Shown here: positions 42,365 to 44,786 of the stretch, in pieces
Position numbering within the stretch: the first letter of the stretch is position 1
How the letters are laid out: each line of letters opens with the position of its first letter
Virus genome (UHGV): UHGV-0117634
Strand: one strand, 5' to 3'
DNA length: 64,000 nucleotides
From: a virus
Notes under the pieces: model-generated
Told to the model about the DNA's origin: nothing
Database searches by the model: none
What the model saw: the letters and a program-made list of their open reading frames with translations, nothing else
Program-made: the position numbers and the translations under genes

Positions 42365-43098
42365 TTATTTGTTCAGAGCTTCTTTCATCTCTGGAGTTGC
42401 GATAGTATCAATCACACCAGTTTTACATGAATCATCAAACCAGCTTGGTAGAACATTCGCAAGGAAACCATTAATATTTGTTTTCAGGTATTCTGCAATC
42501 AGTGCTGCTTCATCTGCAATCATCTGAGTTACTTCATTAGCATATGCAGTAATCTTTGCAATACCCTCATTAATTGCTGTAACGGCCTGTGTAGCGAGTT
42601 CAGAGATTGTATCTAGTCCTTGGTCGATTGCATCTTGCAAATCGCTTAGAACGCCATTTACAGCGTCTATGGAGGTATTAATCAAATCCATCGCTTTATT
42701 ACCGTACTCGGTAGCTACGCCCATGATACCGCTAAACGGTGTACATCCAACCTGTTCACCTGCTGCTCCCATAACGTTAGAGTAACCTTTAGCTACTTGC
42801 ATACGTTGTGAAAACTCATCTACAGACTTTTGTCCATACTCAGTAAGTGTACTTGTCGTTGAAGTTGTACTTCCAAGGCTTGTTGTGAAGCTTCCTAATA
42901 AGGCTGTTGTCAGTCCAGCAGCAACTAAAATCTGTTGTGTAGCTGGGTCTGTTACAGAACTAATTGAGTTAACTAATGATTGAGAGGCAGCTATAGTACC
43001 ACCAAGAACTGCTGCACCAGTAATAAGAGGGTTTGAGAAACCATTACCGGTTTTAAGGAGATTAAAAATCTCTTTACTTTGTTCTGTCATCTCTTTCA
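42365..43098 (-). CDS. hypothetical protein embedded in tRNA cluster (Gly/Ala/Thr/Ser-rich N-region, helical C-region)
   Basis: ORF trimmed to internal ATG with AGGTG SD because the track N-terminus overlaps a tRNA; about 244 aa. Confidence 0.5.
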
Positions 43099-43114
43099 TT
43101 ATGCACCTATAAAG

Positions 43115-43191
43115 TTGGTAGCCCATCGGGATTTGAACCCTGTTCTCATGTTTTTCAGACACGCGCTTTAACCATATAAGCTAATTGAGCT
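43115..43191 (-). tRNA. tRNA-Phe (anticodon GAA), atypical D-arm and T-stem
   Basis: Acceptor TAGCTCA/TGGGCTA, anticodon arm CGTGT-CTGAAAA-ACATG, T-loop TTCAAAT; only 3 clean T-stem pairs. Confidence 0.55.
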
Positions 43192-43197
43192 ATTAAA

Positions 43198-43274
43198 TTG
43201 GGGTGACCTACGGGAATCGAACCCGTATAGACCATGTTCACAGCATGGGTCATTATCCATTTATGATAAGGCCA
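43198..43274 (-). tRNA. tRNA-His (anticodon GTG)
   Basis: Anticodon arm CCATG-CTGTGAA-CATGG, T-arm ACGGG-TTCGATT-CCCGT, discriminator C, CCA. Confidence 0.7.
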
Positions 43275-43305
43275 CATTTAAGGACTCTCGTAAGAACCCT
43301 TAGAA

Positions 43306-43381
43306 GTGGCAGCAGTATAAGGATTTGAACCTTAATCTTTCAGCTTCAGAGGCTGGAGCATTGCCAGTTATGCTATACTGC
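43306..43381 (-). tRNA. tRNA-Gln (anticodon CTG)
   Basis: Canonical 76-nt fold; anticodon loop CTCTGAA; T-arm TAAGG-TTCAAAT-CCTTA; CCA. Confidence 0.65.
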
Positions 43382-43387
43382 TAATAT

Positions 43388-43459
43388 TTGGTACTCCATA
43401 TCGGATTCGAACCGATACATAACACAGATTTTAAGTCTGGCCTCTCTGCCAATTGGAGT
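43388..43459 (-). tRNA. tRNA-like gene, atypical (short D region; anticodon loop CTTAAAA, anticodon TAA)
   Basis: 7-bp acceptor TACTCCA/TGGAGTA, T-arm with TTCGAAT, but truncated D-arm and no long variable arm. Confidence 0.45.
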
Positions 43460-43468
43460 AATGGAGCA

Positions 43469-43544
43469 TTGGCGGGGGATGTTGGAATTGAACCAACTTC
43501 TTCGATTTCAAAGACCGAGGTTTTAACCTTGTAAACTAATCCCC
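43469..43544 (-). tRNA. tRNA-Gln (anticodon TTG)
   Basis: Anticodon arm TCGGT-CTTTGAA-ATCGA, T-arm GTTGG-TTCAATT-CCAAC, CCA; A1-C72 mismatch. Confidence 0.7.
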
Positions 43545-43771
43545 TAACTAACTCTTGTAAGAATATATGCGTTATTGCATGTATCTTTATTTTCTGGCAA
43601 CATTGTTTCAAAGATAACTTGCTTTAATTCCAAACCAGCAAAGTTGTAGACAATCTTTCTAACTTCTAATGGGTCAGCTTTCCAGCCAACTCTGATAAAG
43701 AAAGTATCTCCAAATCTCCCTGTTTCAAGCTTGTCATCTTCTGGGTGTTTTTCAACTATGAGTTTAAACAT
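43544..43771 (-). CDS. hypothetical small protein within tRNA cluster
   Basis: 75 aa; AAGGG SD-like sequence upstream; stop abuts tRNA-Gln. Confidence 0.35.
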   Translation of the reverse strand: MFKLIVEKHPEDDKLETGRFGDTFFIRVGWKADPLEVRKIVYNFAGLELKQVIFETMLPENKDTCNNAYILTRVS

Positions 43772-43790
43772 AAGTTACCCTTTTAAATTT

Positions 43791-43867
43791 GGTGCAGAAT
43801 AAGGGATTCGAACCCCTAACTAACAACTTCGTAGGTTGCTGCTCTGTCCATTTGAACTAATTCTGCA
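43791..43867 (-). tRNA. tRNA-Arg (anticodon ACG)
   Basis: Acceptor GCAGAAT/ATTCTGC, anticodon arm GCAAC-CTACGAA-GTTGT, T-arm AGGGG-TTCGAAT-CCCTT, CCA. Confidence 0.75.
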
Positions 43868-44044
43868 ATATCCTTTTGAGATTCCTGTCTAGCTCTCTTC
43901 TTATCTCTTCTGAGAAAGCGTTTACGATGGTCTGTACGCCATTTGTAATAATCTTCTTCACCATCATGTGCTGCACAGCAGCCACAACTTGCAATTTCAA
44001 CTTTACCATGTCTACCATAAGGCTTCATAGGAATCTCCTAAAAT

Positions 44045-44122
44045 TGGTGTTCCAAGACGGATTCGAACCGTCACTAATACAAGGTTTGAGCTTGCATCCT
44101 CTACCAATTGGGATACTGGAAC
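44045..44122 (-). tRNA. tRNA, isotype uncertain (anticodon CAA, class I-like length)
   Basis: Acceptor GTTCCAG/TTGGAAC, T-arm GACGG-TTCGAAT-CCGTC, anticodon loop CTCAAAC, CCA; 78 nt. Confidence 0.5.
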
Positions 44123-44123
44123 T

Positions 44124-44198
44124 TGGTACTCGCTGAAGGACTTGAACCTTCTTCACCAACTTGTAAGGATGGGGCTTTACCGTATAAACTAAGCGAGC
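44124..44198 (-). tRNA. tRNA-Val (anticodon TAC)
   Basis: Anticodon loop CTTACAA, T-arm GAAGG-TTCAAGT-CCTTC, CCA. Confidence 0.6.
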
Positions 44199-44294
44199 TT
44201 TAAAAGAGGTCTGAAGTTGTGCCGCTAACTCAACTCCGTGGAATTTGTTACGGTCTTCAGTTGACTCAAGCGGTCTTTCACTTGACCTCAAAAT

Positions 44295-44371
44295 TGGTGC
44301 TGCTCACAGGAGTTGAACCTGCATCTCCATCCTTACAAGGGATGTGTAATAGCCAATTATACGAAAGCAGC
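44295..44371 (-). tRNA. tRNA-Thr (anticodon TGT)
   Basis: Anticodon arm CATCC-CTTGTAA-GGATG, T-loop TTCAACT, CCA. Confidence 0.7.
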
Positions 44372-44372
44372 A

Positions 44373-44786
44373 TTAAATTTTTATGATACCTGCATGTACT
44401 TTTCTGTGGCAATTGGCACACAAAACAATACACTTCCTAATTTCAGCTTTTAGCCTTTTTGTGGAATAAGAATAAAGTGACGCTGGGTTTGAGTCTTTCT
44501 CATAAGGGTCAGTGTGATGTAAATCCAATGCAACTGGTTCTTTTTCACCACATATCTTGCACTTACACCAAGCCTTATATCTTCTAGTCAAGTTTCTATT
44601 GTAATCTCGCTTATCTTCACGAGCATTTTTAATAGCCTCTTTCCTTTTCTTATTACCTTGATAACTCTTTGCATCACGGAGTCTTGCACACTCTTTACAT
44701 TGTGTTTGAAGACCATCTTTTTTACTCTTATTCTTATGGAATAAGCTTTCATCTTTTGGTATTCTGCAAGTACTACATATTTTCAT
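44373..44786 (-). CDS. HNH homing endonuclease
   Basis: C-terminal CKICG...LDLHH...N...LCANCHRKVH HNH/zinc motif; N-terminal Cys4 zinc ribbon; inside tRNA cluster. Confidence 0.85.
   Translation of the reverse strand: MKICSTCRIPKDESLFHKNKSKKDGLQTQCKECARLRDAKSYQGNKKRKEAIKNAREDKRDYNRNLTRRYKAWCKCKICGEKEPVALDLHHTDPYEKDSNPASLYSYSTKRLKAEIRKCIVLCANCHRKVHAGIIKI

Follow-up and report, generated by a model that had tools for sequence, protein, structure and literature searches.

What are protein-coding reading frames doing inside an array of phage tRNA genes: are they genuine genes, insertions, or stretches of DNA put to double use? The question is raised by a 64,000-nt stretch of the virus genome UHGV-0117634 (hereafter the window), whose source is a Mooglevirus-like phage of the Ounavirinae, related to FelixO1. 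Its 25 tRNA genes, all on the minus strand, occupy positions 42189-47673 (ARAGORN, with which Rfam agrees), and four ORFs, for proteins of 137 (an HNH endonuclease), 70, 75 and 244 aa, are embedded among them on the same strand. The account favoured here, which I regard as highly probable, combines a homing HNH gene, an exchangeable 75-aa cassette, a truncated 70-aa gene, a core DUF7217 gene and a pre-tRNA transcript shared by all of them.

The embedded reading frames

The features concerned are as follows, in the order in which the minus strand is read.

44801..44875, minus strand: tRNA-Gly(UCC), flanking the HNH cassette upstream and ending (3') 14 nt ahead of the HNH ATG (ARAGORN, Rfam)
44375..44797, minus strand: mobile cassette of 423 nt, made up of an 11-nt leader with an AAGGTG Shine-Dalgarno sequence and the HNH ORF, as delimited by junction comparison with 11 relatives
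44373..44786, minus strand: predicted HNH homing endonuclease gene, 137 aa (ORF, phrog_2255, motif, pN/pS)
44295..44371, minus strand: tRNA-Thr(UGU), 'allele A', 1 nt past the HNH stop (ARAGORN; Rfam, 54.0 bits)
43816..44028, minus strand: predicted gene for a small, Cys-rich protein of 70 aa, phrog_10765 (ORF, PHROG, pN/pS, homologues)
43790..43866, minus strand: tRNA-Arg(ACG), 77 nt (ARAGORN; Rfam RF00005 match 43793-43866, 60.1 bits, gathering score 29)
43544..43771, minus strand: predicted gene of a 75-aa protein, phrog_14202, occupying the tRNA-Arg/tRNA-Gln spacer as a cassette (ORF, PHROG, slot comparison)
43470-43545, minus strand: tRNA-Gln(UUG), sharing 2 nt with the TAG stop of the 75-aa ORF
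43116-43191, minus strand: tRNA-Phe
42365..43099, minus strand: predicted 244-aa DUF7217 protein gene, in the tRNA-Phe/tRNA-Ser(GCU) interval (Pfam, PHROG, orthology)
42271-42363, minus strand: tRNA-Ser(GCU), 1 nt past the stop of the 244-aa gene

Each of the four ORFs starts 14-18 nt past the 3' end of the upstream tRNA gene and stops either at most 1 nt from the 5' end of the next tRNA gene or within it, the offset being +1 nt for the HNH and 244-aa genes, a 2-nt overlap for the 75-aa gene and a 51-nt overlap for the 70-aa gene. The spacing is thus even tighter than in a first-pass annotation of the same DNA, which had placed the four ORFs between tRNA genes. ORF and tRNA calls bear out its HNH gene between tRNA-Thr and tRNA-Gly, its 75-aa ORF abutting tRNA-Gln, its Cys-rich 70-aa ORF reaching into the 5' half of tRNA-Arg behind an AGGAGA, and its 244-aa ORF between tRNA-Ser and tRNA-Phe with the stop abutting the tRNA; only the start of the last had to be moved, to 43099, for the range 42365-43098 gives 23 stops. 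Compared with relatives, all four evolve in the manner of coding sequence (pN/pS 0.05-0.38), and the comparative evidence indicates that they are real protein genes filling gaps of the 25-tRNA array. Compact cassettes, with a ribosome-binding site and an ORF apiece, would have moved into the spacers between tRNA genes, each ORF ending just where the next tRNA begins.

The HNH gene

The HNH protein matches the PHROG family phrog_2255 ('HNH endonuclease', E 1.8e-41) and eight further HNH/endonuclease VII PHROGs; the Pfam profile HNH (PF01844) scores just under its 21.4-bit gathering score (19.5 bits, E 0.0011), and NCBIfam returned no match. A CxxC...CxxC zinc ribbon lies at the N-terminus and a CxxC...DLHH...CANCH..H HNH/zinc motif at the C-terminus, with the catalytic motif between two zinc-binding CxxC pairs (C76-x2-C79, D88-L-H90-H91, C123-A-N125-C126-H127, H131) and alignable to the HNH domain of LtrA, a protein of a group II intron (5g2x, E 0.05). 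Across nine homologues of 37-85% identity, C4, C7, C30, C33, C76, C79, D88, H90, H91, C123, N125, C126, H127 and H131 are invariant. Since the catalytic and zinc-binding residues are invariant and the gene is under purifying selection (pN/pS 0.15 versus FelixO1 ORF47), the enzyme looks intact.

The gene is intergenic, lying between two complete tRNA genes with its own Shine-Dalgarno sequence and start codon, rather than within an intron or intein. The cassette is inserted in the 6-nt tRNA-Gly/tRNA-Thr spacer at AAT^AAT, where the TAA stop re-uses two spacer bases, and its boundary is ambiguous by a few nucleotides owing to the repeated AAT. This spacer measures 429 nt in the window; it is empty in 8 of 11 relatives, at 6 nt (AATAAT) or, in mistaenkt, 7 nt (AATTAAT). 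Sf17, Michonne, Sf16, ESh21 and Silverhawkium have the empty site (...CTCCA-AATAAT-GCTGC), while SFPB (430 nt), BPS15Q2 and FelixO1 have it occupied with identical boundaries. The gene (at least 80% aa identity) or the HNH/tRNA-Thr junction was found in only 15 records, representing 13 phages, and the Gly-Thr region is present in 254-308 records, so that about 13 of some 250-300 related phages carry the gene, always at this site. Among Mooglevirus records SFPB alone has it, in a copy bearing a 1-nt frameshift.

A case in point for transfer between genera is the copy of BPS15Q2, a Felixounavirus, the product of which is 99.3% identical to that of the window. The HNH tiles, 98.75% and 98.5% identical, are the top two of 235 in the comparison with the BPS15Q2 genome (median 80.9%, 95th percentile 91.2%). 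The shared stretch of high identity extends from about 45134 to 44326, a position within tRNA-Thr; the tRNA-Thr of BPS15Q2 is a chimera, with a 5' part of allele A, a 3' part of allele B and a mispaired acceptor stem, and it scores 33.1 bits against 54.0 for its counterpart in the window. As tRNA genes are highly conserved, the tRNA part of this identity island is weak evidence, and it is the 414-nt ORF and the chimeric tRNA that carry the argument. Because of the precise empty sites, the sporadic distribution and the near-identical copy in another genus, the gene is best read as a mobile one, namely a free-standing homing endonuclease gene that has been laterally transferred and has co-converted flanking markers. 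This is the reverse of what the first-pass annotation had set against its own view, an HNH gene shared by all relatives and devoid of any sign of mobility.

One may ask whether the nuclease is instead ancestral at the site, vertically inherited and domesticated (for competitor exclusion, packaging or replication), its patchiness reflecting repeated loss by deletion. The constancy of the site and the purifying selection would both fit, as would the 16% nucleotide difference between FelixO1-type and window-type copies, by which the gene is old in the subfamily; besides, homing endonucleases can give an exclusion benefit, as with T4 SegB and the T2L markers lost in crosses (PMC2330249). Repeated, precise deletion down to the same 6-nt AATAAT in several genera is nevertheless implausible, and vertical descent sits badly both with a copy 98.8% identical to that of BPS15Q2 against about 81% genome-wide and with a shared tract that stops within tRNA-Thr, leaving a chimeric, lower-scoring tRNA. 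Domestication is for these reasons improbable, and homing is the reading retained.

If the gene homes in the way such nucleases do, from which the position and type of its cut are inferred by analogy, the enzyme would nick or cut an HNH-less co-infecting relative at or beside the tRNA-Gly/tRNA-Thr junction, and through recombinational repair off the HNH-bearing genome the recipient would acquire the 423-nt cassette and, along with it, adjoining tRNA alleles. tRNA-Thr(UGU) allele A is likely to be part of the target or to adjoin it. Allele A lies next to the gene in 13 of 13 HNH-bearing phages, which are not phylogenetically independent, and allele B in none; this association may reflect linkage rather than target immunity. 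Allele A also stands beside an intact, empty site in many phages lacking the HNH gene, Sf17 among them (Sf16 has allele B), so that neither allele stands out as the sensitive one, if there is one.

The 75-aa and 244-aa genes

The 75-aa ORF (pN/pS 0.08-0.38) belongs to a family of 76 phage records, 33-100% identical. The Arg-Gln slot in which it resides occurs in three states among relatives, being empty (7-9 nt), occupied by the 75-aa ORF, or occupied by an unrelated 185-aa ORF of phrog_2143, and slot comparison indicates an exchangeable cassette, subject to presence, absence and replacement.

The 244-aa protein matches the Pfam family DUF7217 (PF23854) over residues 7-242, aligned with positions 1-237 of the 238 in the profile (E 6e-84, 281.9 bits against a cut-off of 29 bits), as well as phrog_2114 (E 3e-109), and its gene is the orthologue of FelixO1 ORF49. 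Every member of the Ounavirinae examined has a DUF7217 gene in this position, and the gene extends to Erwinia phages and Ackermannviridae (585 phage records). With 74-83% nucleotide identity to BPS15Q2, the gene diverges as much as the rest of the genome, and its pN/pS is 0.20. An insertion is ruled out by the shared position and the genome-typical divergence; by the same comparisons this is a core gene, vertically inherited, with tRNA genes lying around it. The AlphaFold model of the protein is all-alpha (mean pLDDT 65.6), and the models of the 70-aa, 75-aa and DUF7217 proteins, all of modest confidence, gave no significant fold matches. The earlier idea that the ORFs are insertions into the cluster holds, then, for the HNH and 75-aa cassettes and fails for the 244-aa core gene, the 70-aa gene being one that some relatives lack.

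The 70-aa gene and its overlap with tRNA-Arg

The 70-aa ORF has an AGGAGA 6 nt ahead of its ATG. Codons 1-54 form a conserved module, MKPYG..GK.E.A.CGCC..H followed by a basic stretch, and the final 17 codons (55-70 plus the TAG stop) fall within tRNA-Arg, of whose 77 nt the 5' 51 (43816-43866) also serve as the end of the ORF. The tRNA is by all indications genuine and functional, its minimum-free-energy fold being a clean cloverleaf whose pairing is kept by the substitutions among relatives.

How the overlap arose is suggested by the relatives. Silverhawkium encodes an 80-aa form with a stop of its own 1 nt before tRNA-Arg, and the overlap exists because 82 nt of that form are missing in the window: an 82-nt deletion would have taken away the gene's own 3' end, so that translation would run 51 nt into tRNA-Arg before stopping at the TAG. 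FelixO1 has a 32-aa mini-ORF homologous to the lost tail of the 80-aa form, and in BPS15Q2 there is no ORF here, the gap from tRNA-Leu to tRNA-Arg being only 5 nt.

Is this ORF, and perhaps the 75-aa one too, a gene at all, or a conserved, open but non-coding spacer with a meaningless read-through into tRNA-Arg? The 70-aa protein has no Pfam or NCBIfam match and belongs to a tiny family (4 clusters among 5.8 billion proteins); the ORF is truncated differently across lineages and absent in BPS15Q2, which makes it dispensable, and in a neighbouring spacer the FelixO1 'ORF46' appears to be a false ORF, the homologous DNA of the window having an in-frame stop. Against this, third positions account for 12 of the 19 sites that vary in the 54 codons outside the overlap (p = 0.007), pN/pS over the same codons is 0.05-0.24, and the Shine-Dalgarno sequence is strong and correctly spaced. 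The close family (42 phage records, 88-100% aa identity) has, moreover, distant relatives of 60-63 aa in a full HMMER scan, 43-44% identical over residues 1-58 and keeping CGCC..H, which occur in unrelated, non-tRNA contexts, while homologues of the 75-aa protein extend down to 33% identity over many records. There is hence little chance that these are not genes, and the 70-aa ORF is taken, on codon-level evidence, to be a real, lineage-specific gene for a small, Cys-rich, basic protein.

The other question is whether the overlap is itself selected, the 16-residue tail being needed for function or coupling protein synthesis to tRNA-Arg maturation. The overlapping form is the usual one (41 of 42 phage-collection records, 81 of 87 member sequences), purifying selection on the upstream codons persisted after the truncation, and by its geometry a single molecule cannot be both processed by RNase P and translated. 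Inheritance of one shared deletion by descent, however, explains the prevalence, and the 80-aa form has a wholly different tail. The five sites that vary within the overlap occupy codon positions 2, 3, 1, 2 and 1, lacking a third-position excess and all preserving tRNA pairing; no constraint at the protein level was seen in this segment, a weak negative given such small numbers. Since the overlap lacks codon periodicity and the distant homologues end at about residue 58-63, the tRNA-encoded tail looks like a tolerated by-product, and selected dual coding seems unlikely. The first-pass suggestion of dual-use sequence is right, then, as to the literal overlap with a functional tRNA-Arg, and not as to a selected use, the 82-nt loss being explanation enough.

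Proposed expression from a shared precursor

Consensus matches at either end of the array suggest that all four ORFs would be transcribed within a pre-tRNA polycistron.

47701..47730, minus strand: candidate sigma-70-like promoter, TTGACA-18-TGnTATAGT, just upstream of the first tRNA gene (best consensus match)
42014..42031, minus strand: candidate terminator, a hairpin with a T-run, downstream of the last tRNA gene, tRNA-Cys (consensus match)

Promoter and terminator consensus matches show no enrichment over shuffled sequence; in Michonne, terminators are annotated at the place equivalent to the candidate terminator. RNase P cleavage at the 5' end of the downstream tRNA would leave an mRNA with its stop codon at the very end or, from the 70-aa gene, with none. 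As processing removes or abuts the stop codons, translation would need the unprocessed precursor, and expression would thereby be kept low. In mitochondria, ORFs are directly flanked by tRNAs in one precursor, tRNA processing sets the mRNA ends, and stop codons lie at the tRNA boundary or are truncated by it, an arrangement reportedly described by Ojala et al. in 1981 as the tRNA punctuation of mitochondrial transcripts. Mitochondrial stop codons are completed by a polyadenylation that bacteria do not have, and the likeness is one of analogy, the phage side of it being known from sequence. Nearer to the present case, the same low-expression idea has been put forward for the T4 segB and T5 F-Tfl genes (PMC2330249).

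Relation to known systems

Homing nucleases in phage tRNA clusters, with stops at the 5' end of the next tRNA, have thus already been described. T4 SegB, a nuclease with experimentally demonstrated activity and homing (Brok-Volchanskaya et al. 2008, PMC2330249), is likewise free-standing, located between tRNA genes and absent from close relatives with a homologous tRNA region; as its authors report, it drives co-inheritance of neighbouring tRNA genes, recognises a site that includes a conserved tRNA motif, and has its stop where the downstream tRNA-Arg is processed, whence their proposal of limited expression. Unlike the HNH protein, for which homing is deduced, SegB is a GIY-YIG enzyme without sequence homology to it. 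The T5 F-Tfl nucleases, as described in a 2004 study cited in PMC2330249, are HNH-family enzymes encoded within a tRNA cluster, and processing of the primary transcript is believed to hold down their expression; by that description they resemble the present gene in class and position. Closest of all is FelixO1 ORF47 (NP_944871.1, annotated as HNH endonuclease), an orthologue with 85% aa identity which, along with the copies in BPS15Q2, SFPB, PHB11 and others, occupies the same Gly/Thr site with a stop 1 nt before tRNA-Thr, the window differing in that its copy sits in another, Mooglevirus-like genus. The FelixO1 genome paper lists six HNH genes, its treatment of them not extending to sites or mobility (PMC3185647).

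Among protein-coding genes in the tRNA arrays of Mycobacterium and mycobacteriophages, those for HNH enzymes are described as the most widely distributed, and they are implicated in making the set of tRNAs more diverse (Morgado and Vicente 2018, PMC5966550; Pope et al. 2014, cited there). That abundance matches the enrichment seen here, a tRNA lying within 600 nt in 30 of the 40 closest IMG/VR relatives of the HNH gene, with hosts and phage groups that differ. In addition, relatives of 48-58% identity lie directly 5' of tRNA-Thr(UGU) in Pseudomonas phage KIL1, Pectobacterium phage Bobbio and an IMG/VR contig (L020), and a same-strand tRNA 5' end falls within -15 to +15 nt of the stop in 25 of 46 relatives; neither an ORF end within 15 nt of a tRNA 5' end nor a preference for tRNA-Thr is mentioned in the passages of PMC5966550 on HNH endonucleases.

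A bolder extension, offered tentatively, is that the HNH gene comes from a homing-endonuclease clade adapted to tRNA arrays, whose members would recognise the tRNA gene itself (tRNA-Thr(UGU) in the sub-clade of the HNH gene) and settle precisely at the 5' edge of that gene in phages of unrelated genera (Ounavirinae, Flaumdravirus, Otagovirus, uncultured phages). Homing would then be one of the main forces that shuffle tRNA alleles and give rise to chimeric or damaged tRNAs in phage arrays, and a stop at or inside the tRNA 5' end would be a family-wide device tying nuclease dosage to RNase P processing. Were this true, the 70-aa protein, the stop of which lies 51 nt inside tRNA-Arg, could be completed only on unprocessed precursor RNA.

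Significance

The annotation of the Ounavirinae tRNA array is hereby tidied, its real ORFs being separated into mobile elements (the HNH gene and the 75-aa slot) and a core gene (DUF7217), with the overlap explained; FelixO1 and Mooglevirus phages are in use for typing and biocontrol of Salmonella, Shigella and E. coli. That tRNA processing limits the expression of a nuclease has been proposed for T4 segB, with no test of it in the parts of the tRNA-cluster nuclease literature covered here, and the habit of the HNH family, a stop within 15 nt on either side of a tRNA 5' end, offers a testable model of how tRNA processing may limit the expression of a selfish nuclease. A homing nuclease that crosses genera along with tRNA alleles would explain the mosaicism of tRNA clusters, their occasional broken tRNAs and the varying tRNA counts between isolates.

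The tRNA array and its four open reading frames

The window carries 25 minus-strand tRNA genes between 42189 and 47673 (ARAGORN, Rfam), an array closely followed, on the same strand, by a small ORF and by the genes for terminase and portal. By megablast, the region 42000-48000 matches 304 phage records; the top matches, at 93-97% identity, are Mooglevirus phages of Shigella, Citrobacter and Escherichia (SFPB, Sf17, Henu11, Michonne), followed by Felixounavirus and Suspvirus, which identifies the window, as judged from its sequence, as a FelixO1 relative of the subfamily Ounavirinae. 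The four ORFs named in the first-pass annotation are all present on the tRNA strand; only the start of the 244-aa ORF, placed one base short at 43098, had to be moved to 43099:

44373-44786, minus (tRNA strand), HNH ORF (137 aa)
43816-44028, minus, 70-aa ORF
43544-43771, minus, 75-aa ORF
42365-43099, minus, 244-aa ORF (DUF7217)

All four start 14-18 nt past the CCA end of the preceding tRNA, with a Shine-Dalgarno in the short leader, and end either at most 1 nt from the 5' end of the next tRNA or inside it. Estimated pN/pS is well below 1 throughout, namely 0.15 for HNH and 0.20 for DUF7217 (both against FelixO1), 0.08-0.38 for the 75-aa ORF and 0.05-0.24 for the first 54 codons of the 70-aa ORF (both against relatives); in those 54 codons 12 of the 19 variable sites are third positions (binomial p = 0.007). 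Profile matches were obtained for HNH (phrog_2255, E 1.8e-41; Pfam HNH slightly below cut-off), the 244-aa protein (Pfam DUF7217, E 6e-84), the 75-aa protein (phrog_14202) and the 70-aa protein (phrog_10765).

The HNH gene as a mobile cassette

The anatomy of the HNH gene, its distribution, a lateral-transfer signal and a chimeric tRNA identify it, at the level of sequence, as a mobile cassette. The tRNA-Gly/tRNA-Thr spacer measures 6 nt, typically AATAAT, in 8 of the 11 relatives compared (7 nt, AATTAAT, in phage mistaenkt), and is occupied in the window, SFPB, BPS15Q2 and FelixO1, where it reads AAT, 423 nt, AAT; the 423-nt insert is made up of the HNH ORF and its 11-nt leader, and two spacer bases serve again in the TAA stop of the ORF. 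Far from sitting at this site in all relatives, orthologues at 80% identity or more occur in 15 records only (13 phages), against 254-308 records containing the Gly-Thr region. Genome-wide, Salmonella phage BPS15Q2, a member of another genus, has a median identity of 80.9% to the window (95th percentile 91.2%), whereas the two 400-nt tiles over HNH reach 98.75% and 98.5% and are the top 2 of 235. The high-identity tract extends from about 45134 to 44326 in local alignment, ending inside tRNA-Thr; tile-wise BLAST and local alignment were used across the tRNA flanks, global MAFFT identities being misleadingly low for some tRNA blocks. The comparison of gene order among relatives, which the first-pass annotation had proposed as a check, thus bears out its reading of the HNH gene as an insertion.

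The SFPB copy (OQ031072.1 79819-80233; locus L003) equals that of the window but for an additional A in a run of A; the resulting frameshift accounts for its annotation as a shorter, 345-nt 'endonuclease VII', and reflects either recent pseudogenisation or an error in sequencing the homopolymer. Paralogous HNH genes occupy other spacers in relatives (FelixO1 ORF44 and ORF45, Sf16 gp31, SFPB_119, Michonne gp141); in the long spacers of the window, tblastn with five HNH proteins of relatives detected no further remnant, leaving a single HNH gene.

The closest HNH homologues outside Ounavirinae likewise lie at the 5' edge of a tRNA:

Closest HNH homologues outside Ounavirinae and their tRNA neighbours (phage; genus; amino-acid identity; tRNA)
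Pseudomonas phage KIL1; Flaumdravirus; 58%; tRNA-Thr(UGU) downstream, 10-nt overlap
Pectobacterium phage Bobbio; Otagovirus; 51%; tRNA-Thr(UGU) downstream, 10-nt overlap
IMG/VR contig L020; uncultured; 48%; tRNA-Thr(UGU) downstream
DU_PP_I and ENT3; Certrevirus (DU_PP_I; ENT3 record unclassified); 61%; tRNA-Cys, 4 nt past the stop

A tRNA is found within 600 nt in 30 of the 40 best IMG/VR relatives, and among the 46 relatives whose products measure 100 aa or more, the 5' end of a same-strand tRNA falls within -15 to +15 nt of the HNH stop in 25.

A chimeric tRNA-Thr and the mosaic of tRNA alleles

Two versions of tRNA-Thr(UGU) occur among the relatives, allele A (as in the window) and allele B (as in Sf16, Moogle and Silverhawkium). 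In BPS15Q2 the gene (NC_031939.1 14143-14219; 1916-1992 of its locus L005) is a chimera of the two, its 5' 46 nt being allele A and its 3' part allele B. The acceptor stem is mismatched, the clean cloverleaf fold is gone, and the Rfam tRNA score is 33.1 bits vs 54.0 for the window tRNA-Thr; of the other four tRNAs scanned in that stretch of BPS15Q2, three score 58-60 bits and tRNA-Leu 43.6. A co-conversion tract ending inside tRNA-Thr would leave such a product, and the chimera is probably a recombination scar from HNH homing.

Allele A lies beside the HNH gene in 13 of 13 HNH-bearing phages. Kinship among these phages makes the data phylogenetically non-independent, and the association is therefore treated here as linkage, not as proof of target immunity. 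HNH-less phages carry either version, A in about 138 records and B in about 100, and either allele may mark a sensitive target.

Unrelated coliphages of ~145 kb (arall, VEcB, AV123 and others) have a tRNA-Thr about 93-95% identical to allele B (e.g. that of Sf16, locus L004), a likeness that suggests tRNA gene exchange between phage families. For tRNA-Leu(UAG), at 45047-45123 (minus), there are likewise two divergent alleles, which differ at about 30 of 77 nt; one is common to the window and BPS15Q2, the other to SFPB and FelixO1. The mosaic of tRNA alleles in the array thus extends beyond tRNA-Thr.

The 75-aa slot

Three forms of the Arg(ACG)-Gln(UUG) spacer occur. Michonne, Sf16, Moogle and Silverhawkium have 7-9 nt here; the window, Sf17, SFPB and ESh21 carry the 75-aa ORF; and FelixO1, BPS15Q2, SUSP2 and mistaenkt carry a 185-aa ORF (phrog_2143), the FelixO1 product being unrelated to the 75-aa protein (BLASTP E 2.0). 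Between the window and Sf17 the 75-aa allele shows a pS of 0.42 within flanks that are 97-100% identical, which, read from the alignments, argues that the cassette is exchanged by recombination in the flanking tRNAs. The protein has four close clusters only, and its AlphaFold model (pLDDT 63.3) gave no meaningful fold match.

The DUF7217 gene

The first-pass annotation had regarded the protein genes of the cluster as insertions; this holds for HNH and for the 75-aa ORF, and fails for the 244-aa gene. The FelixO1 orthologue of DUF7217, ORF49, occupies the corresponding place; 585 phage records contain the gene, those of Erwinia phages and Ackermannviridae among them, and its divergence is like the genome average. 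Its AlphaFold model is all-alpha with long helices (mean pLDDT 65.6); Foldseek against the PDB returned generic helical bundles and no match at E below 0.1, and phmmer against PDB sequences only a marginal match to XaxB (E 0.71). The label 'structural protein' is attached to some of the homologues in Ackermannviridae and Erwinia phages. In the FelixO1 proteome paper, 'gp49' is reported for a virion band of 51 kDa; a role as virion component was not accepted on this ground, for ORF49 has 244 aa, about 25 kDa by our own estimate.

The 70-aa ORF and its overlap with tRNA-Arg

Of the 42 records with the 70-aa ORF, 41 show the identical overlap with tRNA-Arg, the TAG stop (43816-43818 in the window) lying inside the tRNA. 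The exception is Silverhawkium, with 82 extra nt and a different 27-residue tail ending in a TAA 1 nt before tRNA-Arg (80-aa form). FelixO1 has a 32-aa mini-ORF homologous to that tail alone, and in BPS15Q2 tRNA-Leu and tRNA-Arg are only 5 nt apart. An HMMER scan of 1.84 billion representatives retrieved two proteins of 60-63 aa, in non-tRNA contexts, that have residues 1-58 in common with the 70-aa protein, including CGCC..H (a third match, in a giant protein, is at chance level); by these relatives, the conserved unit is an N-terminal module of about 55 residues.

The simplest history suggested by these sequences is that of an 80-aa gene whose 3' end was lost in the Moogle/Susp lineage, so that it is now read into the tRNA. 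Both the two short relatives and the overlap segment, where tRNA pairing is preserved and variable sites lack codon periodicity, fit such a loss. The proposal of a dual-use sequence is thus borne out as to the overlap itself, but not as to coding constraint within it. Neither Pfam nor NCBIfam matched the 70/80-aa protein. In NCBI the 80-aa form (P0043) is recorded under an Escherichia coli 'plasmid' (locus tag AB2J12_25360); the longest contig carrying it measures 90,382 bp, and what was deposited as a plasmid may be the genome of an Ounavirinae phage.

Other tRNA-like and spacer features

A 26th tRNA-like gene, tRNA-Tyr(GUA), lies at 47027-47114 (minus) between tRNA-Asn and tRNA-Asp, called by neither ARAGORN nor Rfam. 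Relative to the tRNA-Tyr annotated in Sf17 it has one substitution only, G to T in the T-stem, with which the predicted fold loses its T-arm; this substitution is also present in Michonne, and the FelixO1 copy is annotated as a pseudo-tRNA. A second tRNA-Met(CAU), called by ARAGORN at 47345-47421 (minus), has no Rfam tRNA match at E <= 0.01, and its FelixO1 counterpart a low Cove score of 28.9 (FelixO1 genome paper, PMC3185647), so that this tRNA is, by both measures, atypical.

Three tRNA-like remnants were observed on the minus strand:

45475-45556, minus, 82 nt just upstream of tRNA-Ser(UGA), comprising an acceptor-like stem (GGGACG/CGTCCC) and a T-arm (GGGGTTCGATTCC)
45709-45726, minus, isolated T-arm-like hairpin
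46689-46763, minus, weak Rfam tRNA match (30.9 bits; gathering score 29), no ARAGORN call

DNA at 45206-45400 (minus) is homologous to FelixO1 ORF46 (65 aa, phrog_36337; 69% aa identity, tblastn); in the window it starts inside tRNA-Ser(UGA) and meets an in-frame stop after 14 codons, and ORF46 may be a false call on conserved non-coding spacer. The spacers 45904-46181 and 46494-46943 (minus) hold no ORF of at least 40 aa on the tRNA strand and fold more stably than shuffled sequences (z -3.3 and -2.75; no shuffle as good). They could be stable non-tRNA RNAs, or decayed tRNAs or homing endonuclease genes. The T4 tRNA cluster encodes stable non-tRNA RNAs (species I and II).

Expression and proposed mechanism

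Two consensus matches flank the array:

47730-47701, minus, candidate promoter (consensus match only)
42031-42014, minus, candidate terminator (consensus match only)

The scan gave promoter and terminator counts not above those of shuffled controls, and the sites are therefore used as candidates only. For the same reason a sigma-70-like match at 44383-44412 (minus; TTGCCA-18-TATCAT, 10/12), inside the HNH ORF within 40 nt of its end and just upstream of tRNA-Thr, may have arisen by chance.

By the established behaviour of free-standing homing endonucleases, HNH would nick or cut the genome of a co-infecting relative in its empty Gly-Thr/tRNA-Thr region, whereupon repair would copy the 423-nt cassette, together with adjacent tRNA alleles, into the recipient. 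The geometry of the four ORFs, along with what has been proposed for the T4 segB and T5 F-Tfl genes, suggests that they would be translated from the pre-tRNA precursor; the RNase P cut at the downstream tRNA would trim the message to the stop codon or, in the 70-aa ORF, remove the stop codon, in either case limiting expression. A limit of this kind, set by tRNA processing, is the proposal made for segB and F-Tfl according to PMC2330249.

Relation to known systems

The best-studied functional analogue is T4 SegB, a homing endonuclease in a tRNA cluster which causes co-inheritance of tRNA genes, recognises a site with a tRNA motif and has its stop codon at a tRNA processing site (PMC2330249); SegB belongs to the GIY-YIG family, whereas the window enzyme is of the HNH family. 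FelixO1 ORF47 is the annotated orthologue of the latter, and the FelixO1 genome paper counts six HNH genes without analysing their sites (PMC3185647). According to PMC5966550, HNH genes are the commonest protein genes in the tRNA arrays of Mycobacterium and mycobacteriophages. An HNH nuclease in a phage tRNA cluster is, as such, of an already known kind; what is added here is a documented, probable co-conversion scar in a tRNA, a preference for the tRNA-Thr edge common to several genera, and an ORF/tRNA overlap that would have been produced by deletion.
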